Of a stretch of 64,000 nucleotides of DNA, positions 12,241 to 32,499 are shown in pieces. The notes beneath the pieces are model-generated. The model was not told the origin of the DNA. It saw nothing but the letters and a program-made list of their open reading frames with translations, and ran no database searches. The position numbers and the translations under genes are program-made. This DNA comes from Mytilus edulis. Lineage: Eukaryota. The stretch spans positions 24,924,001 to 24,988,000 of the forward strand of contig NC_092352.1 in NCBI RefSeq assembly GCF_963676685.1, read 5' to 3'. Within the stretch, counting starts at the first letter, position 1. Every line of letters begins with the position of its first letter.

Positions 12241-13329
12241 TTTGTCTCATCATCCTATACTGCTGTGCATCATTTTGGTGGCCTAAAAATCCGCTTTCAA
12301 CATAGCAAAAGCTTTCAGTACAAAAACTGCTGACATCTGTGAAACGGTGATGCATGACTGTCAGATTCAGCGGAAGAGTTAGAAGTAGCCCGAGTTGAAG
12401 CAGAAGTAGAAGCGCCTAGCCTAATGTTGACAAAGAACCTGGAAATGAAGCTGAATCTTAACAAACACCAGAGAAACACAAACGAAAGGCCAAATTCGAG
12501 CGTCGATGAACATCATCCGCGAAAACCAGATTGCATATAACAGATTTATTACAAAAATAAATCCAAAAATAATGAACGTTATCGGAGTTTAATAGTTCTT
12601 CTTAAAACGAATCCGATTGATTGTAGATTAAGAAAAAAAATAAAATGTTATTTCCTTCATTTTTTTTAAAATTTATATATATTATAGTTAGAACATTCAC
12701 AAATCTTATTCACTGGTTCTTAGCTCAAAGGTTTCTGTGAGTTATAGTCCTGATCACTTGACATCTGTAGTTTTTTTCCGTCATCTTTTGCGATTGGAAA
12801 ACATAACGGTTGTTAGCTTTACATTTCAACAGGTATCTGTCCACTGCGCAGTAAAACATATGTCAACCATCTGTAACGCAATATTGTGTCTCAGGCCGAA
12901 TCACAGTTTTACCTGTATATAACACGTTCTCATCTAAAATTAGAAATTCTCATATGCCACTTAACTTATTTTTGTGTGAAAAGGCTACAACATTTGTGAT
13001 TATTGATATATTACGCGTTAAAAACTCACTGTATAGCATAAATGATATTTGTTTGTCATCTTTTGGCAAGATTTGTGATCTTTCTTTGTAAATGCGAACC
13101 AAAATTTCATTTTTTTTTATCATAAACCTTTTTCATAGGATGCTAGAATGAACTTTTTTAACACCAAGGAAATAGTTCACGTAAATAAACCCTAAAAAGA
13201 TACTCATTCTGCATTTTTGTTATACTTTTATGTCATTTTTGAAATATATACATTACATAGCATTTACCCATCTTTATTTCAGATGTTTCAATGAAAAGAA
13301 TGCTAAATTAAGTCTTTTTTCTCTTACTT

Positions 13330-14150
13330 GTATTTGTCAGGTCTGTATGCCTGCATACCACCCTGGTGTATGCTAAAACCTCACTGTATGCATATACAAG
13401 TATCTTTCAGGTATGTATACTAGCATACCGACCTGGTTAATGCTAAACTCTCACTCTATGCATATACAAGCATTTTTCAGGTCTGTATGCTAGCATACCG
13501 ACCTGGTTAATGCTAAACTCTCACTCTATGCACATCCTAGTATTTGTCAGGTCTGTATGCTAGCATACCGACCTGGTGTATGTTAAACTCTCACTCTATG
13601 CATATATACTAGTATTTGTCAGGTCTGTATGCTAGCATACTGAACTGGTGTATGTTTAACTCTCACTCTATGCATATACTAGTATTTTTCAGGTTTGTAT
13701 GCTAGCATACCGACCTGGTTAATGCTTATTTTTCACTCTATGCATATACTAGCATTTTTCAGGTCTGTATGCTAGCATACTGACCTGGTTAATGCTAAAC
13801 TCTCACTCTATGCATATCCTAGTATTTGTCAGGTCTGTATGCTAGCATACCGACCTGGTGTATGTTAAACTCTCACTCTATGCATATATACTAGTATTTG
13901 TCAGGTCTGTATGCTAGCATACCGACCTGGTGTATGTTAAACTCTCACTCTATGCATATATTCTAGTATTTGTCAGGTCTGTATGCTAGCATACCGACCT
14001 GGTGTATGTTAAACTCTCACTTTCTGCGTATATAAGTATGTGTCAGGTCTGTATTCCTGCATACAAATCTGGTGTATTTAGAACCTTATATATATATTTG
14101 TTTTGGTATAGTTAAGGTCTGTATGCCTGTATACGAACCTGGGATATGTA
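13330..14150. repeat. ~60-62-bp minisatellite, about 13 units, each with palindrome CAGGTCTGTATGCTAGCATACCGACCTG
   Basis: Directly visible tandem array. Confidence 0.95.
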
Positions 14151-15290: not shown

Positions 15291-17059
15291 TATACTATGG
15301 TAACAATTGTGTATACACTGGAGTTGTAAAAACAAATCCTTAACCAGGAAAGCCAAAGAATTGATGCCTTTTCTAGTAAAGCCATGCATACATTATTAGC
15401 AGGAACAGCAAAAAGACTGGTGTTGTTCATTGGTGTCATAGTTTTCTAGGAAGGCATTGGTTTAACCTATCCAGTCACTAAGAAGTGTTACAATTAAATT
15501 CATAAGCAACACATAAATAGTTACATGAAAGGTATAGCCAATGTTTGAAAAATGCTGAAACGAGAAATGGAAACTACATATCATATACATATATATGTGC
15601 GAGTAAATATTTTACACTTCACAAATTTAACATTGATGTAGCGTGGTCAACTACATCAAAGATGTGATGGTCAATTATACTTAATTTGTTGAATGATCTT
15701 GCATCTTGATTATTAAATGTGACAGTTTGTACGGTACATGAGTTGCACAGTAGAAATGTAATAACATTTGGACGTTTATCAAAGCAAGGTTTAATTTAAT
15801 TTAAGGACAGCGGTTCATAGCACGATTTTGTAAGAAACTTTTTGTATTGATCACTTATATTGGTGTAGTAGCTTAAAGTAACAATTAAGTTGCGATATAG
15901 ATTGTAATGAAGTAACATGTTGTTTTATAGAGTTGGAACTAAGTAACGTTTTGTATTGGAATTTATAACTGTGAACCTGGGTTGTGAACCTTTTGAATAT
16001 ATCATATATACCTGTACTTTTATATGATTAAACATGTGAACATTAAACAGACTTCGTTACTCATATATAGACTGAAGTGAGCCTATATATATATATATAT
16101 ATATGGTGAAATATTTAATAGCTATTTCCTTATGTAAACGGGCAAGAAGGATTAGATCCCAGATACATATATCCAAAGTAATGACTGTCAAAAATACACA
16201 GAACAAAGACCCGTTTAGCGTTACATTTATATCACAATTACTGATTTTAAAGTTTATATGAACTAAGGGTTCTTTATAGTGGTTGAATTGAACTCGTTCC
16301 CTTGAAAAACAAATTGTCGCCATGCATGTGATTGATTGAAGATCAATGAAATATGTCATTTCCTTAGTAACATTCATATTTCCAATTTGAACACTCTTGA
16401 AATGTGCTGTTCTAATCCTTTTGCAATAAATTTATGAATAATTTGTTTGAATTACATCTTTTCTAAAAAAACTAAAAAGCTAAACAAAAGACGGCCAAAG
16501 CTACGTTTTCTTTTTCATTGTATTGTGACAAGTAACCCCCAGGGCATATATTTTTTTATTTTTATATTATGCTGTAAATATGTTATTTCAAATGGATAGA
16601 ACATGAGAATTATTGTGATATTTAGATTTTTGAGACTTGTTGTTATTTTGAGAAAGTTCCCGTACTTTTTCATCTGTAACTTTTTCGGGATCGACCCCAC
16701 TTTAGACATACTTTCTGTCAATTTTGGACAATGACAGCCAAACTTACTTATATACACTCTTTTCTAAAGTCGAATTGAGTTTGAGAATTTACTTTTCCCC
16801 ACTGAAGGTTATGCATTTTGCTTAAACTTGTCGATCTTCGTTTCTGTTACAGACAGCATGTATCGCTATCCGCCATTACTTCAGATGAACGGCTAGCGAT
16901 TTCATTGGTTGATTAAAAGAATAAAGTATTTTACCTTAATTTTTGTAGAAATTGTTATAGAAATGTTTTATTTTACGATTAATGTTAGAAAATGTAAAAG
17001 TTTATATTTTAATAACTTTGTATTCTTTGTCGATTCAACTTGTTAAAGAATGGAGCTTT

Positions 17060-17205
17060 TTGATTGGCTATTGGTTACTGTGCAAGATGGGGCACTTAAG
17101 GGTATCGTGCATGCCCCTGTGCGGTACATTTGCACTGCCGTGCAGTGGCGGGTATTATATAACCTTTCGAAAACGCTGCACTGACGTCACTTTCACGCCA
17201 TTTTA
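17060..17205 (+). promoter_or_regulatory. Putative LTR Pol II promoter
   Basis: ATTGG (CCAAT) boxes at ~17063-17075, TATATAA 17156-17162, CRE palindrome TGACGTCA 17182-17189 overlapping Inr-like TCACTT, YY1-like CGCCATTTT; mirrored in the 3' LTR. Confidence 0.5.
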
Positions 17206-17576
17206 TTAGGGATTGAACCGCTGCCAAAATTTTATTAGAAAGTAAGGCCAATTTTTACGTTTAGAAACTTATTTAACTAAATTTTCTTATTGGAAAAACG
17301 TAATTTTACAGAGATTTTAATGATAATTTCTAGAAGTTTATTTTCATTTCAAAAGTAACTTTTAAAGGCTGTTTTACGAATTTATGGTTCAAAATTTCAT
17401 TGTTTTGGAATTGTAAAGTTTTGTTTAAGTACATTTTACCGGAAAGTTAGATTTTTCTATTTAAGAGTCCAAAGCCAATCAAACTATTTTTGCGTTTAAA
17501 TTATAGACTGTGTTATAGGATTTTAAAGGTATATCTGAGAGTTCTTTGTTACACTTTTATTGTCCTCTATTTTACA

Positions 17577-18618
17577 AGACATACGCTACTAGTAAAGTCT
17601 CTAGTACACTTGTCTACATTTACGCAAATTAAATATTATATTAGATAAGGTAATAGGGACACAAAACATACGCTACTAGTAAAGTCTCTAGTACACTTGT
17701 TTTGTTTAAATAACTATAAATAGGGAGATTAGTTAAAAGACATACTCTACTAGTAAAGTCTCTAGTATTTTGTCCTGATTAAAATAATTGGAATAAGGAT
17801 AAAGGGCTTACGCTACTAGTAAAGTTTCTAGTACATTTGTCCTGTTTAAATAACAGTTACTGTATAAATAGGGAGATTAGTCAAAAGACATACACTACTA
17901 GTAAAGTCTCTAGTATATTTGTCCTGTTAAAGTAATTAAGATAAGGATAAGGGTCTCAGGACTACACTGCTAGTAAAGTCTCTAGCAATTGTCTTGAAGT
18001 AAATAAGAAAACCAAGTTACAGATAAACACTATTTTGAGTAAACTTTGAGATAAATTAGATGGCATATGCTGCTAGTAAGGTCTCTAGCACAATTGCCAT
18101 AATAGCTTAAATTTGTATAAACTGAGATTAATTGATTTTCTCTTCATAAATCTATTTGTACATTCATTTACAAGTAAATACTAAAAAAACCTTTAGATCT
18201 AAGGCATACGCTCTAGCACAGGGTCAGCTAGCGCACTTGCCTCTAAATTTTGTACACCTGATAACGCTCTAGCACAGGGTCAGCTAGCACACTTTCTTGT
18301 GTACTAAAGTTATAACGTTTATAATAAAGAATTTAATACATTAAAAACCTTTTAGAACTTAGGCATACGCTCTAGCACAGGGTCAGCTAGCACACTTGCC
18401 TCTAAATTTTGTACACTTGATAACGCTCTAGCACAGGGTCAGCTAGCACACTTTCTTGTGTATTAAACTGTTGAATATTCTATTGTCTATGTAACGTTAC
18501 CAATTTAAACTCAGAAGTTAGGTACTCAGTTAAACCTTTAAGTGATATATATATACCTCAGATATACCTTGTTAATATTAGACATACGTTACTAGTAAAG
18601 TCTCTAGTACACTTGTCT
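17577..18618 (+). repeat. Array of 12 interspaced ~38-50-nt stem-loops inside the 5' LTR
   Basis: Class A (GACATACGC-TACTAG-TAAAGTCT-CTAGTA-CACTTGTC) at ~17577, 17661, 17738, 17804, 17886, 17956, 18060, 18580; class B (ACGCT-CTAGC-ACAGGGTCA-GCTAG-CACACTT) at ~18202, 18252, 18361, 18411; compensatory changes in the stems. Confidence 0.9.
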
Positions 18619-19021
18619 CTTTGTTATATGTAATATTTGCTACTGGTCTCATTGTTACATACCAGTGTCAGTGTATCTGAAGAGCGAAACCCTAGTCAAA
18701 TAATAAACACACTATTGTTATTCATATTTTTATTGGTTAACTGTAGTCCTTTAATAGTCCATTATATATATTGAAAGTGACCATAACATCATGCCAATAA
18801 TAAAGTATTGAACTTGAAAACGTATTTCCCTTTACTTTAGATTTTAACAAATCTAGCGAGACATAGAGTTTGCTTTTCCAGTCATTATATCTGGTTTATT
18901 GTGTCACCTCAGTTGGTTCTGATTTTGAGATTTAGTCTTGGGTCAAGGTCTTGTGTACGTTCATTGTTTGGGAGTTTGCTGACAACCTTATTTGCCATAT
19001 AGCTCTTGCGCGCTACATTTT

Positions 19022-19039
19022 TGGCATCCTCGGTGGGAT
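19022..19039 (+). other. Primer-binding site
   Basis: TGGCATCCTCGGTGGGAT, separated from the LTR end by 4 T; priming tRNA not identifiable with confidence (partial resemblance to Leu/Asn 3' ends). Confidence 0.75.
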
Positions 19040-19083
19040 CTGCTTGTCATTTGCGGATCCAGTGGTACGAATATCTTTTAATT

Positions 19084-20765
19084 ATGGTAAAAAGGAAGAA
19101 TCCAGCACTACCCAAACCAGGTGAAAGGAGCGAAATAGACAGAGACGGATGCCATCGAGACTGACACAGATTGTAATATGTACACAGACTTTTCAGAGCC
19201 AGAAACTGACGACAGAGATGTTACAGTAATACCAAAAGTAAGCGTGATAAACTTGCCCAGCACTAGCTCTATACCAATTAGTTCAGATATCAGACCAAGA
19301 AGAAGTTTGAGACTGTCCAGGAAGAGAGAAGTCCATACAGAGAGTGAGAGAGAAGAACCTGAAATGCAAAGTCATGGTGACACAGCTGGTGTTTATGGTA
19401 TAATTAAAGGGGCATTTCAAGAAATGACCGGTCAATTGGTGACAGCAATCCAATCAGCATTCAAGGGTTTCCACAGTGATACCAAGTTAACTGAAAAGGG
19501 GGAGACTAGAAAAGCAAAGAAAAGACCAACAAAGTCCAAAAGTGACCCAGGCAGATTACATCCTGTGATGTCCAACTTTGCCATCCAGTCAGACAGTGAT
19601 GATAGTTCAGATGAAAGCAGCTATGAAGATTCTATAGAAGGCAGTATAGATACATGTTACATAACAGAACCCAAAAGAAAACCTGCTATGTCTAATAATG
19701 TTAAATTACCAGCTTATACAGGCAAAAAAAAAATGGGAGGTGTACTACAATAGATTTGAAGCTGTTTCTAAACTGAGTCATTGGGACGACTACACCAAAC
19801 TAGCAGAGCTACTTCCTCGTCTACAAGGAGAAGCAGGTGACTTTGCCTTTGATCAACTTGCCCAAAGAACATTATCAAGCTATACTAGATTAACCAAAGA
19901 GATACACAACAGATTTGGAACTTTCGAGACCAAGAAAAACTACAAAACATTGTTTAATAGACGAAACCAGAAATCTGACGAGAAACCAGAGGCTTATGCA
20001 GCAGAGCTGAAACGGATTTATGACAAAGCTTACAAAAACAGAGATGTGAAAATTAGGCAAGAGGACCTGTTACAAAGATTTCTGATGGGACTTTCTGACC
20101 ATGACAGTAGGGTCCATGTGGAGCTATATAAAGAACCAAACACCATTGAAGAAGCAGTGCAAGAAGTTATCACTTTTACTGAAGCTATAAGTCCACAAGA
20201 AGACCATACAGTAAGCAAATTTAAGAAGCAAGTTAGGCAGGTTAAGGGAAAACAGAAAACTTACAGTAAAAAGGGCAAAGACAAAGGAAAGAAACAAGAT
20301 GACCAATCACTTAGTGAAGACAGTGACCAACCTAACCCTCCTAAACCAGGATTCACCACTGTAGATATTGAACAAATTAAAGATATAATAAAGCGAGTAA
20401 ACTAGGAGCAAAGGAGAGATGAAAACATACAGAAACCAAATGGGTACCAGGGGAACTCCCATTTTAGCTCTTCACCAAATTATGTACCAGATTCTAACAG
20501 TTACAATAGAAGAGAAAACATAAATACTGCAAATCCACCAAGTCAACAGGGGTATGGTAGTCAAGATACAAAGAAAAATTTTGCTTGTTATTATTGTGGC
20601 CAGCCAGGACATTTTGCCAGGAACTGCTTTAGTAACCCAAATCGACAACCCGACTTTAAAAGAAGCCAACCATGGAATGAAGGAAGAACAAGGGAGGTTA
20701 CTCCACCAACTCTAGATTTTAGGTCAGGGAAAACTGAGTCTTTCCCTGAAATAGCTTTAAACTAG
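19084..20765 (+). pseudogene. gag: gag (capsid-like domain plus CCHC zinc knuckle), disrupted
   Basis: VKLPAYTG/KKWEVYYNRFEAVS..W..KLAELL..LQGEA and RRNQKSDEKPEAYAAELKR capsid motifs; CYYCGQPGHFARNC at ~20586-20627; frameshift in the A10 run at 19724-19733 and TAG at 20403; start position uncertain. Confidence 0.9.
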
Positions 20766-20798
20766 AGAGGGTCAACTCCAATGACCAGGAGCTGACCC
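20756..20798 (+). other. Programmed -1 ribosomal frameshift signal (gag to pol)
   Basis: T TTA AAC slippery heptamer immediately before the gag TAG, 6-nt spacer, hairpin GGGTCAACTCC-AATGACCA-GGAGCTGACCC; the -1 frame is open into the protease ORF. Confidence 0.85.
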
Positions 20799-23700
20799 AG
20801 GGTTTTCAGGAGAAAGGTCAAATTTTGAGAGAGGAGAATAAAGAAGTGTCACATAGCAGCAGTAGTTCAGTAGAGGTTTTGAGTAGAAATAAAAGTAGTT
20901 TTAATGAGGTTATTGATTTCTCACAGGGTGAGAATGAAAATTTATGTTCAAGCTGTGACGACAGCAGTGAACAAAACTTGATTAGTCCACAATTTATTGG
21001 ACGTCAAGTACTCCGCAGCGAAGGAGTTTATATTGAGGGTCATGTGCAAGGCACTGAAGTGAATTTTACAGTTGATACAGTGGCCTCTCGAACAGTGTTA
21101 TCGAGAAGGGCTTTTCAACAAATACCATTTGCTAAAAGACCCCTCTTAAAGAAGTCAAATATGCTGGCTAGTGCCGATGGCAAACCACTACATGAGTTAG
21201 GGAAAGCCATTTTTGACATCAAATTAGGAGATTTACCTTTTGAAATTGAAGTTGTAGTTGCAGAGATTGAGGACGAAGCCTTGTTGGGTCTTGATGTACT
21301 TATGAAGGCAGATTGTGGACCAGCTAATTTAAGATTAAGCGACGGGATTATGCTGCTAGGTGATACTTCCATTCCCTGTCAACAAATTGGCTTACCTGAA
21401 AGAGTAAGAAAAATTAGAGTAGCTGATAATTTTTCTATACCGCCCAGAAGTGAAATGCTTATAGATGTTTTTATAGATAGATATGAAGATGACCAAATTT
21501 TAGGATCCTTTGATTTTGTTTTAGACCCCACGGAAGATATATTACAGAGATACCCAGTTGTTATGGCCCCTACTATAGTTAACATTGAAAAAGATGTAAC
21601 CAGTTTAGTTAGAATATTAAACCCTTTTGATACAGAGTTTACTTTATATCAAGATACAGTTATTGGAGAAGCTGAAAGCTTGATAAAGGAACCAGAAATT
21701 TTAGTTTCATGCGAAGATAAAGCTGAAGTCAGTAATTTTTCAGTAGTTAGACGTATTAAATTAAGTGACCATAAACCAGTTCAGTGGGAAACCAACACGG
21801 GAATTATTAGGAACATTTCAAAAAAGGGACTGCAGATGGTGGGAAAAGTGGTATTGTTCCTGATCACTTACAGGATTTATTTTTAGAATCTACTAAAGAA
21901 CGTTCAGCAGAAGAATGTGATATTATTTGTAATTTATTAAATAAATTTTCAAATGCTTTTTCTAAAAATGACATGGATTGGTTTAACTAATTTAACAGAA
22001 CACTGTATAGAGACAGGGGATGCCAGACCAGTGAAGCAGCCACCAAGAAGAGTACCTTTGGCCTATGCTAATGAGGAAAAGAAGTTGGTAGACCAGATGT
22101 TACAACAAGGGATTATCCAGAAATCGCACAGTCCATGGGCATCTCCACTGGTTTTGGTTGTGAAGAAGTCTGGTAAGCTGAGACCATGCTGCGATTTTCG
22201 CAGGCTAAACAAGCTAAGTCGGCTCGATAGTTTTCCTATTCCACGCATACAGGACTGCCTGGATACTTTGAGTGGTTCTACCATTTTCAGTACTTTTGAT
22301 TTGATCAGTGGTTTCAATCAGATCCCTGTAAAGAAAGAAGACATCCCTAAGACTGCATTCGTGACTAAGTATGGTCTATTTGAATACAAAACTCTCCCGT
22401 TTGGTCTTTGTAATGGGCCGTCCACCTGTCAAAGACTAATGGAATTAGTTTTAAACGGTTTACAGTGGCAAACTTGCCTAATTTACCTGGACGACATTAT
22501 AGTCTTCTCCCCTAGTTTTGACCAGCATATTGAAAGACTAGAAGAGGTGCTCCTTAGAATTTTGGAGGCAGGGTTAAAGCTGAAACCAGAAAAATGCACT
22601 ATGTTAAAGTCAGAAGTTGCATTTCTTGGTCATGTTGTATCAGGAAAAGGGGTTCAACCAAATCCAGATAACATTGCCAAAATTTTAGCTTGGTCAGTGC
22701 CAACAAATGTAACTTAAGTCCGTCAATTAATTGGGATGGGTAGCTATTATCGTCGTTTTATTAAAGATTTTTCTTCTCTTGTGAAGCCTCTAACAGAGCT
22801 CACTAAGAAGTCAAATGCATTTATCTGGTCGAATGAGTGCCAAAAATCTTTTGAACAACTTAAAGAAGTATTTATGAGTCCAGAAATAATGGGATATCCT
22901 TTAGACAAGGGAGATTTTATATTAGATACGGATGCAAGTGATTTTGCCATTGGAGCAGTTTTGAGCCAAATTCAAGATGGAAGACCCAGAGTGATCGCTT
23001 ATGGCAGTCGTACCTTAAATAAAGCTGAGTGCAATTATTGCATTACAGACAAAGAATTGCTGGCAGTCCGGTATTTTATAGAATATTATAGGCAGTATTT
23101 ATTGGGTAGAAGTTTTATGGTCAGGACTGACCACCAGGCCTTGATATGGTTATTTAGCCTTAAAGAGCCTAAGGGTAGGATTGCCCGGTGGATTGAAATA
23201 CTATCCGCTTTTGATTTTACTGTAGAATATAGACCAGGCCCCAAACATGGAAATGCAGATGCTATGTCACGATGCATAAACCCCCGTGAGTGTGATTGTC
23301 CCCAAACAGACCATATGGAATATTTGAAATGTGGTCCTTGTGCGAAATGCACAAGAAGAGCTCGTGACATGGTGACTTCCATGATTTTCCCCCCTTTTAT
23401 AGAAGAAAAGAAAGTTTTTAAAAGTCTTAATGTAGTAAAGACAAGGAAACAGACAGAGGAAGCTAATACTTGGACCATTTAGAAAACAGGACATACTATA
23501 CCAGAGCTAAAGAAATTACAAGAGGAAGATGAAGCCATTGGCCATATTTTTAAATGGAAAACAGATGGGAAGAGACCGCCATGGAGAGATGTGGAAAGTT
23601 TGAGTCCAGCTACCCGACATTATTGGCACCTTTGGGAATCCTTATTTTTTAAAGAGAATTTACTCTTTAAAGAATTCTCTAAGCGAGATGAAACTGCTGA

Positions 23701-24838
23701 CCAAATACAGTTTTTAACCCCACAGAAATTGAAACCTGAAATCTTAGCTCAAATGCATAATTCCATTACATCTGGGCATTTGGGAAGGAAAAAGACAAAG
23801 GCAAAGCTTTCCCAGAGATTTTATTGGTATGAGATGAGAGAGGAAATCACCATATGGTTAGCAAAGTGTGATATTTGCCAGGCAAATAAACCTCCAGTAA
23901 AAGGATACAGGGCCCCTTTAGGAAGTATGCCTACTGGTGGACCATGGGATAGATTGGCTACTGATATTTTAGGCCCTCTTCCTGTCACACCAAGACATAA
24001 TAAATATGTTTTAACGGTAACAGACCATTTTACAAAGTGGGTCGAGGTTTTTCCTGTACCGGACTCCACTGCTGTTACCTGTGCTTACTTGATTTTAAAT
24101 GATGTTATATGTCGTTATGGTTGTCCACTTGCCTTACACTCTGATCAAGGTCGCAACTATGAAAGTGATATTTTTCAAGAGCTGTGTTCTATGTTAGACA
24201 TTAGAAAAACAAGAACCAGTGTAAGAAATCCAAATGGTAATGGTCAAACAGAGCGATTTAATCGTAGTTTACTGTTTATGATTAAATCTTATTTACAAGG
24301 TGAACAGACAGACTGGGATTTAAATCTTGGTTGTCTTGCAGGTGCTTACCGGTCTACTCCGAATGAATCTACAAGTCTTACTCCTAACTTGTTGATGTTA
24401 GGAAGGGAAATCAGGTTTCCAGTTGAGGTGACACAAGCAAAAGTTTTGGTTCAAGGTGAAGTCCAAGTAAATCCAGGCGATTTTGTCTGTGAATTAAGAG
24501 AGAGGTTGCAAAAGGCTCATAGTGTTGCCAGAAAACATTTATCAGCAAATGCTAAAAGGCGTAAAGATTACTATGACCAGAAAGTAAACTTTGTCATTTA
24601 TAATATTTTTGATAAGGTTTGGTACTTAAACGAGACAAGGAAGGAAGGCATAAGTCCAAAACTTCAACCCTTATACTTGGGACCTTGCCTTATTACCAAA
24701 AAGTTGAATGAAATTAATTTTGAAATACAACTAGATGCTAAGGGAACCAGAAAGGTTATTAATCATAACAAGTTGAAACCTTACATTGGTGAAAACATAC
24801 CCAAGTGGATGAAAATAGTTGAAAAACAAATTTCTTAA
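20756..24838 (+). pseudogene. pol: pol: protease, RT, RNase H, integrase (HHCC, DDE, GPY/F), disrupted
   Basis: VDTVAS (DTG degenerate), LPFGLCNGP..YLDD, LDTDASDFAIGAVL..TDHQAL, H..GH..C..C, TDILGP..HSDQG..TERFN, LYLGP; frameshifts at ~21825 and ~21977, stops at 22715 and 23480. Confidence 0.96.
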
Positions 24839-25261
24839 CTGTTGTTAATGGCCGGTTAAACTCCATTATCCTTTGTCTGTACTATACTTGAGTGATAAAC
24901 TGAAAATATAAAAATAAATTTTTGTAAATATCAGTAGAGATATCAAATATGAATTCATTATTTTTATGAATTCTTCCAAAGAAATCTAACTTGACAAGTT
25001 AGGGATCAAATCTATATTTTGCTTACCAATATGAAAATTGTTAAGTATTTAATTTAATTTTAAATAATATAAACTTGGTGTATGAAATTTTTATATACCG
25101 TTTAATAAGTATGTAATATAAACGTACCTTCTTTTGGCTTAAGGGTATAATTATCTCCCCTGTATAAAGCTAAAATAAACTTCAGATACACTGCCAGGTT
25201 ATTTCTGGGACCAGACCTATTAAACTGGACAAGAGTTTTAAAGGTCCTATACTCTTTTTAG

Positions 25262-26506
25262 ATGAGTTTCCAGTATGATGCCGCCAAGGCCAAGAGAATG
25301 GCAACCATCTGTCTTCTCTGTACTGATTCTCCTGCTTATATGGGCCAGAAGCATAGAGTTGTAACACACATTTTGGTGAACCATGTGTCAGTTTCGAGAA
25401 CACCTTACTTCTGCACACTTTGCCAGTTTAGATGCACCAACATGGATACTCTGAAACAGCATGTGAAATTTCATAGGCCTCATCAGACATTGAAGGATAG
25501 CTTTTCAGCCTTGCCAGACAAGGACTACTTTCTTATCTCAGATTCACCTTACTTCCCGTAGGCAGGAAGAGATTTTAAACTGTTGCCTAGGCAGAGACCC
25601 GGTTTGGGCACTACAATAGACCCAGTAGAATTGAGTTCAGGAAGCAGTACTGGTGGAGTATCGCCTCCCACTGTACCAACATGTGTGATACCAGAACGGC
25701 CAGTAGGAAGGGCCACTGTTTACATACCATGTTTTATGCCACCACCAGAATCAGAACCAGTCCAGTTTGTAAATTACACTTCTCCATCTGATATTTCCTC
25801 ATATCTACCTCCACCTCCTTTCGACTTCAACCCAGGACACTGGTCATCACCCTCCATCCAAGCTTCACCACCCTTGCCAACAGAAACCAACATTGTTCAG
25901 GAAATAATACAGGAGAACCAGGCTGCCCTTGGGATTGACCTCCAGTACACAAACACCATAGATTTTTTTGATTTACCAGAATCGCCATTGGTATCCACAC
26001 CAGAACTGGCCTCTACAGTGAGGAACATCATTATGAGAGACAGAGAAATAGGGGAAGAGGAAAATTTGTTGCCCCAGCTGTTAGGTGATAGCAACCCACC
26101 TGTATCACCCTCAACAAACCATCCAGCCACGGAATGGAATGGTGTTCCTCTTAGCCAAGGTCCAGAACTTCATTCATCCTCATCCTCCTCTTCATCTGAT
26201 TGCTCTGCTCTGGGAGAGGTGAAACAGTCAATATCCACTTTACTAGAGAACACTGCGGCAGAGCATTCAAAGACCAGAGAAAGTATTGGCCAGTTGGGCA
26301 CGGTTATTGAAAGTCTGGTGTCGCAGGTACAGGGTTTGAGATCAGTGGTAAGGGAGCAAGGGGATGAAATCAGGAGATTAAAGAACGATCGACCGAACAC
26401 AACTACCATCGTAAACAGATCCAGAATTCAGCAAAGGCGCCGGACGCCGACACCCAGCAGACAGAGATTTGGCCATCCACTTCCACCTGCAAAAAGAAGA
26501 AGATAA
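25262..26506 (+). CDS. Accessory ORF3 in the env position: 2 C2H2-like zinc fingers, Pro/Ser-rich region, coiled coil, Arg-rich tail/NLS; one in-frame TAG at 25559
   Basis: ORFs 25262-25561 and 25583-26506 share a frame; C-x2-C-x15-H-x4-H and C-x2-C-x12-H-x3-H; heptads LGTVIESLVSQVQGLRSVVREQGDEIRRLK; ends RSRIQQRRRTPTPSRQR..PPAKRRR; ATG directly preceded by CTCTTTTTAG. Confidence 0.75.
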
Positions 26507-26724
26507 ACTTGTTATATTTAGGGTATTATAAATTTTGGGTAAATATTTAGGGTAAAATGGTAGAAAATCATGAAATCAATTTGAAATTATGTAAGGGAGA
26601 GTAAATTAAATTTTTTTAAAATGTTATCCAGCTAAATAATGGTTTTATTCAAGAGATTTTATAAGTATTGAAAAATTTTCAGAAATCAAGTTTATAATTG
26701 TTTAATTCAAATTGTTACACTTTT

Positions 26725-27021
26725 AACAAGAATGTGTCCTCAGTACACGAATGCCCCACTCGCACTATCATTTTCCATGTTCAGTGGACCGTGAAATTGG
26801 GGTAAAAACTCTAATTTGGCATTAAAATTAGAAAGATCATATCATAGGGGACATGTGTACTAAGTTTGAAGTCGATTGGACTTAAACTTCATCAAAAACT
26901 ACCTTGACCAAAAACTTTAACCTGAAGCGGGACAGACGGACGGACGAACGAACGGACAGACGGACGGACGCACAGACCAGAAAACATAATGCCCCTCTAC
27001 TATTGTAGGTGGGGCATAAAA
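26725..27021 (-). mobile_element. Non-autonomous Helentron-associated (HINE / pearl-CvA-like) element nested in the Gypsy 3' UTR
   Basis: AACAAG end with subterminal ATGCCCC, internal (GACG/GAAC)n microsatellite, terminal hairpin ATGCCCCTCTAC-TATT-GTAGGTGGGGCAT, A/T-rich insertion site. Confidence 0.75.
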
Positions 27022-27552
27022 ATAAAACATACCTTTCTGTTCAATCATTTTCTTTTAAATTCATTAGATCAATAGCATTTCCTGTCATACTGAAAAATAT
27101 AATTTTAGATTTAGCTATGTGTTACTTATAGCATGGTAAAGGGTCGATCATTTATTGTTGTGTATTTTAAACTGTATGTATTTAAGTAAAGTAATATGAT
27201 ATAGTTAATATTGTATTGGATAATGGTTGTGGATGTACCTAGTTAAATGGTGATACATTATTAGAAAAGAAATTTTTGAAATTATTTTTACTGTTAAATT
27301 ACTATAGTAAAGTAAAGAAATTATTACTTAACTCATGAGTTTCTTAAAGATACGTACCTTTACTTTGGAAAACGTCTCTGCTTTAATTTATTTATGACTA
27401 AACACTAGTCATAATTTGTTGAAGAAATATTTTGGTGACAATAAATATAAATTTTTGATATTTGCAAAATGTGGAAAGCTTTTCAAAGGTGACACGATAC
27501 AGGGAGAAGATGTTTTCTAGTCCGTCCAATTTGTGGGGACACAAATTTTAAC

Positions 27553-27564
27553 AGGGGGGTAAAA
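27553..27564 (+). other. Polypurine tract
   Basis: AGGGGGGTAAAA immediately before the 3' LTR TG. Confidence 0.8.
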
Positions 27565-28958
27565 TGTGACAAGTAACCCCCAGGGCATATATTTTTTTAT
27601 TTTTATATTATGCTGTAAATATGTTATTTCCTTGTTATAGATAAGATATATGTTTTGAATTGTTAATAATGTTATTTATTCTATATGAGTGCTAAGTTCC
27701 TATGATAATAGAACTAAAATGTTTGTTTATTGTTCATTGAAGAGATATTTTCATAAAATAATCCAAGTCAGGAATGTTTTCATTTTTGCATAAATTGTAA
27801 ACATCAAGATTTTTGTTAAAATGACTTTCCATATATTTTTATGTTTACCTAGTCATGGTAAATGCTTTAATAATTGTGTTGTGTATTGACTTGTATCAAC
27901 AAATGGATAGAACATGAGAAATATTGTGATATTTAGATTTTTGAGACTTGTTGTTATTTTGAGAAAGTTCCCGTACTTTTTCATCTGTAACTTTTTCGGG
28001 ATCGACCCCACTTTAGACATACTTTCTGTCAATTTTGGACAATGACAGCCAAACTTACTTATATACACTCTTTTCTAAAGTCGAATTGAGTTTGAGAATT
28101 TTCTTTTCCCCACTGAAGGTTATGCATTTTGCTTAAACTTGTCGATCTTCGTTTCTGTTACAGACAGCATGTATCGCTATCCGCCATTACTTCAGATGAA
28201 CGGCTAGCGATTTCATTGGTTGATTAAAAGAATAAAGTATTTTACCTTAATTTTTGTAGAAATTGTTATAGAAATGTTTTATTTTACGATTAATGTTAGA
28301 AAATGTAAAAGTTTATATTTTAATAACTTTGTATTCTTTGTCGATTCAACTTGTTAAAGAATGGAGCTTTTTGATTGGCTATTGGTTACTGTGCAAGATG
28401 GGGCACTTAAGGGTATCGTGCATGCCCCTGTGCGGTACATTTGCACTGTCGTGCAGTGGCGGGTATTATATAACCTTTCGAAAACGCTGCACTGACGTCA
28501 CTTTCACGCCATTTTATTAGGGATTGAACCGCTGCCAAAATTTTATTAGAAAGTAAGGCCAATTTTTACGTTTAGAAACTTATTTATTTAACTAAATTTT
28601 CTTATTGGAAAAACGTAATTTTACAGAGATTTTAATGATAATTTCTAGAAGTTTATTTTCATTTCAAAAGTAACTTTTAAAGGCTGTTTTACGAATTTAT
28701 GTACATTTTACCGGAAAGTTAGATTTTTCTATTTAAGAGTCCAAAGCCAATCAAACTATTTTTGCGTTTAAATTATAGACTGTGTTATAGGATTTTAAAG
28801 GTATTTAGTATCCAGTATCCAGTCATTATATCTGGTTTATTGTGTCACCTCAGTTGGTTCTGATTTTGAGATTTAGTCTTGGGTCAAGGTCTTGTGTACG
28901 TTCATTGTTTGGGAGTTTGCTGACAACCTTATTTGCCATATAGCTCTTGCGCGCTACA
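27565..28958 (+). repeat. 3' LTR (1394 bp)
   Basis: Near-identical to the 5' LTR but carries an extra 270 bp (27631-27900) and lacks the ~1.35-kb hairpin block and a ~42-bp segment. Confidence 0.95.
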
Positions 28959-30479
28959 GTATACATGCTAGTAGTCAGCTATTAAAATTGTAACTAACAC
29001 GTAATAATATGTAGATTTATAAAAAGTTTGCCAATGAAATCTCCTTGTTTTATTGGTCATTAACAATACAGGGATGAATCTTAGTGCTATTGTTGTAACA
29101 TTAAGGGGCTTTATCACAACTATTAGTGAAATAAAGTAACTGTATCTGAAGTATCTTAAAAAAAGATGCTCATAAATTACCCTGTTACAGTATTGATTTA
29201 AACAGTCTAGTGGCGGATTAAGATATTTTCATAAAGGGGGAGGGGGTTCCAGCCAAGGTTCAGTGATTCCTATATAATCAACCAAATGTTTCCCACAAAA
29301 GCGGGGGCGGGGGGGGGGGGGGCAGGTACCCTTTGTATCTGCCTATGGGACCCAACATGAAAAATAAGAAATGATAATGTATAGCAAAACAATTCACGAA
29401 AAAAACCGGAAAAAATTGGAACCAATGAAAACTTCAATAGTCAGGCTCCTGACTTGGGACAGGCATATAAAGACTATATAGTGTGGCCGGTTTTAACATG
29501 TGAGCGCTCGTCTTCCCTTTTTTTTTTTTACCTGGGACAGTTGTTTCCCTAAAAGTTGTAAGAATAAGACATGAATATCCAGAAGTTTCAAAAGGGGGAT
29601 GAGATAGGGAGGGCACTGCATGACTTCTTTAGAGATGGACGCTTCAGTACTGTTTCCCTCAATAAATCAACTAAAGTTTTTCCACAAAGCACTGGCATAG
29701 CACCCCCTCAAATTCTACCTCTTGTATGTGTACGTACTACATGTTCAAGCCGACCTCCAAAAAAGAGGGTGTTAAATGAAATCGTGAAAAATGTACAAAA
29801 ACAGCTAGGTTTACGTACCATAAATACATCCGACATTCTGTTTTGCTTCTGGTTTATTCAAATCAAGATAATAGAGCGTATTTTTGTCCATTTTCTTCTC
29901 CGTGAGGGGAACTCCTTCATTGATCATTCAAATTGTTTACATTTATAAATGACGTCATCTAGATGGAGTGCGTGACTCCGCAGATAAATAGTCCTTTTTC
30001 TTTGACTTTTTAATAATTACCAATACCAAGCTTAAGTATAAACAAAACAGGTTGTTTTGTAATCAATTGCTATTATTTTAATTAAGTGTACTGGTAAAGT
30101 AACTTGTGTAAGTCAAGGCTATCCATCTATATCCCTCCGCCTTACGTCAGAATGTCCCTGACGTCATATAAATTTTGGTCAACAACTTCGAACCTTGTAC
30201 AAATTATGATCGCCTCATTTTTCCGTAATTTTAATTTGCAAACAAAACAGATAACTGTCAGGTCAATAAAGCGATCATAGTCATGGAACTTGAGAATTGG
30301 TTTTCATTTATAGATTTACAACAGTGAACGCTTTACCGGTTTGCCTTGCAAATTAACTCTTTTCTGTTTACCAACGGGAGAAAATAAAGAGGTCAGTGGT
30401 AGGCTTTTAGTTTTTTAAAAAAACTCGAAATCGGCAATAAAGTAAAACCACAACTATACTGACGCAAAGGATTTTTTGG

Positions 30480-30700
30480 AACACCCAGGTTCGTATGCTA
30501 TCATACAGACCTGTGAAATACAACATCTGATTCAATATTTGCTGTTCTGCATACACCAGGTGCGTATGCTAGCATACATACCTGGGAATGCAATGTATTA
30601 ATTAAATGTAGACATTAGCATAAACCAGGTACGTATGCTAGCATACAGGCCTGAGAAATGCAAGTTAATTTATTACAATTCAGTTCAGCATACACCAGGT
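30480..30700. repeat. Inverted, more dispersed copies (3-4) of the 13.3-kb palindromic unit
   Basis: CCAGGT(T/G/A)CGTATGCTAGCATACAGACCTG-like units. Confidence 0.85.
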
Positions 30701-32499
30701 GTTAAATATGCCAGATTCACGATTTCCAAGTGCTTGATAAAATAAAAATGTGTTTTTTCCTTTATTTTTCTCGTTTTTGCACAAGTTTGTCTTATGGGCA
30801 ATAATTCGACCTTTTTGAGTACGAATTATGACAAATTACCGTTAGTGAGAATTTCTAATTTTAGATGAGAACGTGTTATATAAGGTTTTTAAACTTGAGC
30901 ACCATACCACACTGTAAATATCTGTACATATTTTAAACCATATATCCCCAAGTGGGACTGTCCGTATTATAAAAGAGGGACGAAAGATACCGAAGGGACA
31001 GTCAAACTCATAAATCTAAAACAAACTGACAACGCCATGGCTAAAAATGAAAAAGACAAACAGAAAAACAATAGTACACATGACACAACATAGAAAACTA
31101 AAGAATAAACAGCACGAACCCAACCAAAAGCTAGGGGTGATCTCAGGTGTTATTATTACGGAGGAAACTACCTGAACAGAACAGAACATGCTACGTGCTC
31201 TAACAAAAAAGGGGGAATCAAAATATTCCGTTATTATAATAATATTTATCCATATATGTTGTCTAGAACAAAACTTGGTAGGACCCCCCCCCCCCCCCCC
31301 CCCCAAAAAAAGCAACACAAACACCGACATCTATCCTAAAGATTAATCCCTAAAATTGATGTTCCATTTATTTTTGTATCTGTGAAACAAGAACATGTTT
31401 ACACCAGACTGCAGGATATGTTTGTCTTTTTGTAAATCTGTTTTGAGACGACCCCTGTAATTTTTGCTGTCAGAGTCGGAGTCAACAGTCGGATCCCAGA
31501 CTTTCCGTAAATCTTTAATAGTATTATCACGGCATTTCCACATGTAATAGTTTAAAGGGCAACACCATTTAAATCAAGAACTTGTTTAAAAAGACTGTTT
31601 TTAAAATCCAAGTCTCCGTTTAATTGGTGTGAAAATAAATCTGAATGATATTTTATGTTAAAATGCAAATGGCGCCGCCTAATTCATTGACCCCAAAAAG
31701 ACGTAATGCATGCAGTCTATTTTTCTGAATTAATAAGATTTTGAAGAAATGTGATACAATATATGCTTAAAATTTTAAGATTGATAGTTTTGGTCCTATG
31801 CACAGTCGGATGTCATTGTAAACCAAAACAGGTAACACAATACTTGTAGCAGCTTCTGCAAACGTCATGCCCAGGTTCAATCCACCAATTTACACATTTG
31901 AAAATGCCTGTACGAGTCAGGAATATGACAATTGTTGTCCATTCGTTTGATGTGTTTTGTCATTTGATTTTGCCATGCGATTTAGGGACTTTCCGATTGA
32001 ATTTTCCTCGGAGTTCAGTGATTTTGTGATTTTACTTTTTGATCAACTTGTTACGTTGGCGAAAATCACGTGACACTCCATTTCTAGTGAGGTAATACGA
32101 AAAAATACAAGTTGTACGTACGGTACAAGTTTTCAATCTCAACCTCTCATTTGCCTTAGATGCCCTCCAATTGTATCTGTCTTCATAGATAAAGCATTCG
32201 GCTCTAAATGTGGCCATTAATTTATTGTTAATTGTGACTGTAAATGTGTTAAATCTTGAAAATGGTTTTGGACATGCGGAGACCTTCATACCACATCTAT
32301 AAAATTAAAATAACGAGTTTTGTTTAAAGCCGTCATGCCTCAAACACGACAAATCAAAGAAATCAACTTTATAGTGTTTGATTAAAAATTACACCATTGC
32401 AGGACCTTTTGTTTTTAAGAGCCCCTGACACCTTCATAACTGCTGTACTAAAGGAAAACAACACCTACCTCGTTTCCACACACAGACATTCAAGATACA

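Follow-up and report, generated by a model that had tools for sequence, protein, structure and literature searches.

Complex retroviruses pair a trans-acting regulator with a structured RNA, as in Tat/TAR of HIV and Rex/RexRE of HTLV, and control of unspliced RNA by a protein that the element itself encodes is textbook knowledge for these viruses. Among retrotransposons such control has been shown for one worm element, Cer1 of C. elegans, whose unspliced RNA depends for its export on the spliced, nuclear protein CERV (PMC10309623). Rev and the export elements bound by host proteins (constitutive transport elements, CTE) are summarised in PMC5035971. We analysed a 64,000-nucleotide stretch of the Mytilus edulis genome (NC_092352.1, positions 24,924,001 to 24,988,000; hereafter the window), in which positions 16524-28958 form a Ty3/Gypsy retrotransposon with long terminal repeats (LTRs), TG...CA ends and GTAT on either flank. 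An earlier note had proposed that this element combines a trans-regulator, encoded by its third open reading frame (ORF3), with a cis-acting hairpin array, and that the pair was a candidate new system. The combination itself was borne out, since one element carries both 12 LTR hairpins and a non-Env ORF3 with fingers, a heptad pattern and a basic tail. Its novelty as a concept was not, since a Rev-like protein encoded by an LTR retrotransposon, CERV, had already been published (PMC10309623).

The element shares with Cer1 the addition of a zipper-containing protein to a Ty3/Gypsy backbone, with a Cys-rich part in CERV and a message whose splicing is, in our case, predicted. By its published description CERV has H, M and G domains and a C4 loop and no C2H2 pair after integrase, which sets it apart from ORF3, and the terms "stem-loop" and "response element" are absent from the main text of that paper (PMC10309623). 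The Cer1 paper thus comes without a described RNA target, whereas here a candidate protein family is accompanied by an RNA element, likewise a candidate, whose loop is defined. Because both candidates reside in the same young, multi-copy elements, their pairing is directly testable; if it is true, a retrotransposon would have both a trans-regulator and an identifiable response element for it. The Rev, Rex and Tat systems resemble our element in having an accessory gene (splicing predicted here), oligomer-forming and Arg-rich protein parts, and structured RNA in an intron or in the repeat (R) region of the LTR. They differ in that our element has no Env, no sequence link to them, fingers and a zipper, a row of separate small hairpins, and a protein that often occurs without the array.

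Three further systems come close in layout. In the plant Gypsy lineage Retand, an extra ORF downstream of pol (TRP28) is retained in nearly all active members and has been proposed as a regulator, and about half have tandem arrays (PMC11963269). As described there, the Retand ORF is antisense and the arrays are internal and family-specific, whereas ORF3 lies in sense with an acceptor motif and the hairpins stand in the LTR with a loop common to several families. In foamy virus the LTR donor lies upstream of the poly(A) signal, and U1 small nuclear ribonucleoprotein (snRNP) together with RNA structure chooses which LTR is polyadenylated (PMC3694450). Our element likewise has a donor motif before the poly(A) signal, but donor and conserved signal are ~1.55 kb apart with the array between them. 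Errantiviruses, the Env-bearing Gypsy elements, carry their third ORF in the same slot after integrase (PMC13524379), whereas ORF3 has no Env match in Pfam and does not read as a membrane glycoprotein. Zinc fingers go unmentioned in the main text of that Env survey and of two mollusc surveys (PMC6238403, PMC10294476), whose supplements may list them. Our literature search, with Repbase and most subscription papers outside its scope, returned no description of the ORF3 family or of the array; in the literature searched, the ORF3 family and the loop-defined array of one subclade are an undescribed accessory gene and RNA element.

On sequence evidence, ORF3 is a real, selected and old gene of mollusc Gypsy elements. 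We compared ten families, A (that of the window), B to I and L116, with elements gathered around finger and integrase matches. Against five diverged family-A copies that hold the domain, the ratio of nonsynonymous to synonymous substitution (dN/dS) in the fingers was 0.05-0.09, and over all A comparisons it was 0.07-0.22 in the middle of the protein and 0-0.12 in the coil and tail. Within B, C, D, E, F and I, all but one of 15 comparisons gave finger values of 0-0.26. A splice-acceptor motif lay at most 12 nt from the start in 23 of 28 third ORFs, compared with 46 of 879 control ATGs; the start codon was picked by eye in three entries, and G was excluded for its frameshifted 5' end. The shared plan starts with a finger pair (H-x4-H, then H-x6-H) and continues through an acidic middle and a coil to a basic end; in an open sister copy, 15 of the last 45 residues are Lys/Arg. 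Dimerisation through the zipper is predicted from the heptad pattern. An LxxLL-like motif occurs in the acidic middle of A, B, H and 11 of 47 homologues. Pfam scans found no Env family, and no signal or membrane stretch was seen by eye, so that ORF3 reads as a soluble nuclear protein rather than an Env.

The two fingers are C2H2-like, with every Pfam match below cut-off. None of 47 ORF3 sequences had a TGEKP linker and 45 of 47 closed finger 2 with H-x6-H; the Kruppel type, defined by a TGEKP-like linker and H-x3-5-H closing, does not describe them. Finger 1 retains a basic pair found family-wide. A structural model of the 110-residue finger domain (predicted local distance difference test, pLDDT, 77.5; predicted template modelling score, pTM, 0.62) placed both fingers and a C-terminal extension in one compact unit. 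Foldseek returned no fold match to it under E 0.001, and ESM Atlas matches were confined to unnamed clusters and generic C2H2 families. Many of the best 150 matches in a profile search were single-domain relatives; named relatives came from Mytilus, the freshwater mussel Potamilus and the snail Gigantopelta. Of seven metagenome loci found, each lacking whole LTRs, six were examined and five had the homologue following integrase. Scans of viral and prokaryote contigs yielded no ORF3 loci. Two homologues (P0177, P0167) are filed under symbiont bacterial genomes (Sedimenticola, Thiodiazotropha) and are probably mis-binned host contigs. One finger copy stood without a nearby integrase; its four neighbouring frames had no Pfam match, which gives no link to Penelope elements.

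In each unit of the array a variable outer stem is followed by an internal loop and a CUAG inner stem, which is capped by a purine-rich loop that in the window reads AAAGU, AAGGU, AAAGUU or AGGGU. The pattern CTAG-N8-11-CTAG occurs as 12 units within the array and as two loose matches elsewhere in the 64 kb. The earlier note had described the unit as TACTAG-N8-CTAGTA; this form is exact in 6 of 12 units, while two read TGCTAG/CTAGCA and four are a CTAGC/GCTAG variant. Folding z-scores were -1.9 to -3.3 in 9 of 10 folded units, the remaining one folding worse than its own shuffles. Outer arms paired with their own partners at a mean of -6.3 kcal/mol, compared with -3.6 kcal/mol for arms of other units; 0 of 5000 permutations did as well, which is not a strict probability because the units are related. 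Across 18 units of three families, two-sided changes occurred at 7 of 10 pairs, and the paired fraction fell from 84% to 29-48% in slid controls. Genome-wide, a short unit pattern gave 83 matches and its reversed control 2. No Rfam family matched the array at threshold, with two chance matches below it. Copy number ranges from 2 to 12 or more across array families, and some units of A and G are recent block duplications. Reading the hairpins as RNA is supported by covariation and by a loop shared between families, and the array proposed in the earlier note held up as a structured RNA element on these grounds and on its position after a donor motif.

Motifs suggest where the array would lie on the transcript. 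AAAACGC and ACGTCA of the predicted promoter also occur in B and C, and in G as TGACGT followed by AAAACGC. The donor motif follows AAAACGC by 67-73 nt in A, B and C. The poly(A) context AATAAAGTATT, common to A, B, C and F, lies about 150-230 nt before the LTR end, and G has a late AATAAA. In A, B and C the order is promoter words, donor motif, hairpins, AATAAAGTATT, the last standing 170-220 nt from the LTR end in these three. The array is probably transcribed, judging from the promoter motifs, with units about 390-1430 nt after the putative start, and its placement as a structured element in the leader, after a conserved donor motif, is predicted from the motifs. If these motifs are used, then full-length RNA would carry the 5' array in its leader, the ORF3 message would lose it with the spliced-out intron, and R would be about 1.6 kb. 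The 3' end is uncertain because each LTR has earlier AATAAA matches. Acceptor-like sites downstream of the poly(A) signal in 5 of 5 LTRs examined are a hint, and may be just a U-rich downstream element. Depletion of upstream ATGs in the leader held in A (7 in 1553 nt) but failed in B, C and H, and was dropped. In four raw RNA-read runs, of which 6-18% each was used, there was almost no depth on array, donor or ORF3 and no junction read, and nearly all reads fell on an inserted repeat (26725-27022). Given the uncertain tissue and species match of the runs, this result is no evidence on expression either way.

We next consider the array in related families. Model R1 found two units per LTR in B (three in one copy) and three plus one weak in C, at the LTR position that they occupy in A. 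It gave nothing above noise in D, E, F, G, H, I, L116 or 20 distant elements. Since R1 is blind to the hairpins of G, absence in the other six families is compatible with a different motif; for D the upstream region was scanned, LTR ends not having been established. Read first by eye, the G hairpins have unrelated stems and the loop AAGGU. In a test of 21 LTRs with no preset motif, 7 of 8 perfect hairpins in A shared AAAGU and 5 of 8 in G shared AAGGU on five different stems, each in 0 of 300 shuffles. This test replaced an earlier one with 5-bp stems that was so noisy that family A itself was missed, and its own power is limited, as it misses the small arrays of B and C. It also gave two hairpins with a common loop in the LTR of L120, one of the distant elements (3-4 of 300 shuffles). 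Eight G copies retain 2-6 AAGGU hairpins each, with one two-sided stem change seen by eye. Family I has two loop matches near the LTR start (0 of 200 shuffles) that are dissimilar and were not counted as an array. Two identical family-C elements stand in tandem at L069-L071 with the middle LTR common to both.

Loops in C contain AAGGA, and a core AA(N)G(U/A) is constant across families whose ORF3 fingers share just 31-39% identity. The motif is found at the same place in four families, with integrases 66-76% identical, and it is in excess on the sense strand in A (15 vs 3) and G (7 vs 1), the motif having been set after A and G were seen. The inverted TACTAG pair is kept in one or two units of B and C. 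With the loop as the constant feature, and on the sense strand, these results favour RNA recognition and speak against inverted DNA sites.

Both parts occur in 4 of 10 families (A, B, C, G), the gene alone in six (D, E, F, H, I, L116) and the array alone in none. Array LTRs without ORF3 were solo LTRs or deleted copies only: seven of seven further array LTRs had no coding match within 6 kb of flank, and two further array copies had lost ORF3 mostly or wholly along with intact pol. Families with a single component, which the earlier note had named as the finding that would refute a pair, are thus common on the gene side (6 of 10), which counts against the pair, and absent on the array side (0 of 4), which counts for it.

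The reading we favour, at a probability of about 0.35, is Rev-like: the ORF3 protein would bind the purine-rich loops of the leader RNA array and switch the element from spliced to full-length RNA. Transcription would start near 17190, and by default the donor at 17242 would be joined to the acceptor at 25261, so that the 5' array is removed and the ORF3 message made. ORF3 would dimerise through its zipper, enter the nucleus through its basic tail and load on several loops of the unspliced RNA. Loaded ORF3 would then favour intron retention, read-through of the poly(A) site in the 5' LTR, or export, as Rev and CERV do. A trans-cis pair is plausible and contact between its partners is predicted. 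Counting in favour of the Rev-like reading are the selection on ORF3, the acceptor and donor motifs, the covariation, the loops of G, the sense-strand excess, the presence of ORF3 in 4 of 4 array families, the missing TGEKP linker, the modelling of the fingers as a single compact unit and the precedent of CERV.

A number of results weigh against it. Six of the ten finger-plus-coil ORF3 families had no array detected in LTR or interior, so that protein and element are not always found together, in tests that miss small arrays such as those of B and C. In a pol tree of 28 copies (FastTree, midpoint root), A, B, C and G formed one clade (support 0.994) nested among array-less finger-coil families. 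The array was thus gained once on this tree, and the co-occurrence is one data point that cannot show co-evolution; as the protein is older, the array would have been amplified later, as a landing pad specific to this lineage. Mosaic A copies (L017/L018, L027/L028) are 91-93% identical to the window in gag, reverse transcriptase and integrase and 80-83% in ORF3, and in two copies the synonymous distance was about 0.6-1.6 in ORF3 vs 0.14-0.19 in integrase. This suggests that subfamilies have exchanged the ORF3 module while the loop sequence persists. By sequence (CTCF, E 6e-9) and by fold (nothing under E 0.001), the fingers match DNA-binding C2H2 proteins best, and finger-2 helix positions vary among A, B, C and G. 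One finger comparison in E gave a dN/dS of 1.01, on two synonymous differences, and young A copies gave 0.36-0.48 on few differences. In G, no donor match was found at the corresponding place. A hairpin at the very 5' end, as in TAR, was not found, the first unit lying ~390 nt after the putative start; and if the conserved poly(A) signal is used, a 3' array copy would also be on the spliced message.

Two close rivals jointly outweigh the Rev-like reading. The array may be a packaging signal for the Gag knuckle, with ORF3 a separate nuclear regulator such as a transcription activator at the LTR promoter, a possibility that we consider doubtful but a real contender. Retroviral nucleocapsid knuckles bind exposed G-rich loops, Gag of this element has one CCHC knuckle, and the 5' array would sit in the leader of the unspliced RNA, beyond the donor motif; an activator would account for the acidic middle with its LxxLL-like motif, the zipper, the DNA-binding finger matches and the six families with ORF3 and no array. 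As a tag for the genome only, the array is weakened by its place before the primer site and probably in R, where it would also end the spliced message, and a DNA-reading regulator fits poorly with the missing canonical linker and with base-contact positions in finger 2 that are not conserved. Rather unlikely by itself is a platform, independent of ORF3, on which a host RNA-binding protein would act in export, splicing or poly(A)-site choice, like a constitutive transport element. A slowly evolving host partner would fit a loop core that stays constant while the fingers diverge; the donor motif precedes the LTR poly(A) signal, as the donor does in foamy virus (PMC3694450), and host-bound export elements are known (PMC5035971). 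No Rfam family at threshold and no host partner came to light, though, and the strong selection on ORF3 would be left unexplained.

The other two explanations are unlikely. The earlier note had also allowed that TACTAG-N8-CTAGTA is an inverted site in double-stranded DNA for a dimer of ORF3. A protein with zipper and fingers could well be built as a dimeric DNA binder, and the exact inverted pair is there in half of the window units and a few of those in B and C; but G keeps the loop and drops the TACTAG stem, the spacer is conserved and strand-specific, the outer arms co-vary unit by unit, and finger-2 contact positions vary among A, B and C despite their common stem, all of which leaves this version highly improbable. 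Hardly more credible is neutral tandem expansion within a long LTR. The wide range of copy number, the recent block duplications in A and G and the loss of the array from one LTR of the window copy would suit it, but spacers differ while pairing is kept, the place is the same in four families, and the genome-wide matches far exceed the reversed control.

From 133 scored integrase matches we hand-picked 20 distant Gypsy copies of the host genome (L101-L120). In 14 of them a separate third ORF was led by C2H2-like fingers, mostly recognised by eye, with Pfam finger matches in three; the C-terminal domain is a TatD nuclease in five of these 14 (E 1e-38 or better) and a BTB domain in one. The remaining copies comprised three with a finger at the pol tail, one with an acidic ORF and two with none. 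Among the Gypsy elements sampled from this genome, a third ORF led by fingers is the norm. The finger-TatD families (L104, L105, L107, L111, L115) have LTRs of 207-284 bp in the four measured and are the sister clade of some finger-coil families in the pol tree; our literature search found no paper joining TatD with Gypsy elements. A wider proposal, tentative and quite possibly wrong, is that a large mollusc Gypsy clade consists of complex retrotransposons, with a spliced finger gene in the env slot whose RNA-targeting adaptor would be joined to one effector or another, be it a zipper and basic tail, a TatD nuclease or a BTB domain, and would, in one subclade, read the AAGG-loop LTR array.

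The features of the window element are collected in Table 1. Pfam scans gave the domain order protease, reverse transcriptase, RNase H, integrase after gag, and primer site and polypurine tract are present. The named proteins closest to those of the element belong to Mytilus. Both components that the earlier note had seen in this copy are there, but the copy is defective: gag and pol have frameshifts and stops, ORF3 is interrupted, and the array stands in the 5' LTR only, the 3' LTR being short by 1344 bp with all hairpins included. In three sister copies (96-97% identity) ORF3 is open over 418-420 codons; the array stands in both LTRs of the two that are full length and in the single LTR of the other, which is a 3' fragment.

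Table 1. Features of the Ty3/Gypsy element, in window coordinates.
Feature	Coordinates	Strand	Remarks
Left target-site duplication	16520..16523	.	GTAT, 4 bp; right copy 28959-28962
5' LTR	16524..19017	+	2494 bp; without a 269-bp piece carried by sister copies
Predicted core promoter	17156..17187	+	TATA, then AAAACGC, ACGTCA; start site inferred from motifs
Splice-donor motif	17239..17247	+	AAA/GTAAG
Hairpin array	17577..18618	+	12 stem-loop units
Poly(A) signal, predicted use	18799..18804	+	AATAAA in context AATAAAGTATT
Primer-binding site	19022..19039	+	complement of 3' end of host tRNA-Arg(TCT)
gag	19084..20765	+	one CCHC knuckle; frameshift near 19730, stop 20403-20405
pol	20750..24838	+	protease, reverse transcriptase, RNase H, integrase; frameshift before reverse transcriptase, stops 22715-22717 and 23480-23482
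Splice-acceptor motif	25248..25261	+	pyrimidine tract and TAG, adjoining ORF3 ATG
ORF3	25262..26506	+	414 codons, stop at codon 100; fingers, Pro/Ser/acidic middle, zipper, Arg-rich tail
ORF3 zipper	26198-26389	+	I/V-L heptad read from sequence
Inserted high-copy repeat	26725..27022	.	unrelated, in 3' untranslated region; this copy only
Polypurine tract	27550..27560	+
3' LTR	27565..28958	+	1394 bp; without 5'-LTR positions 1010-2353 (entire array and conserved poly(A) signal)

Several smaller observations concern this copy and its surroundings. The ends of the 3' LTR deletion are joined by a short filler of local sequence (28804-28818), and the deletion points lie close to donor-like and acceptor-like sites, not at them. 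The inserted 298-bp repeat has a GGAC microsatellite and a 3' palindrome, carries thousands of RNA reads, and is presumably akin to the Helentron-associated repeats of bivalves. A 70-bp tandem array lies to the left of the element (12916-14150), inverted partial copies lie to its right (30474-30882), and a 37-nt perfect inverted pair lies further out around it; on these grounds the Gypsy element seems nested in another, foldback-like repeat. Elsewhere in the host genome, at L180 (C4 near 50.72-50.79 Mb), tRNA-Arg(TCT) genes alternate with tRNA-Lys(TTT) in a long tandem array, which is the source of the family A primer.

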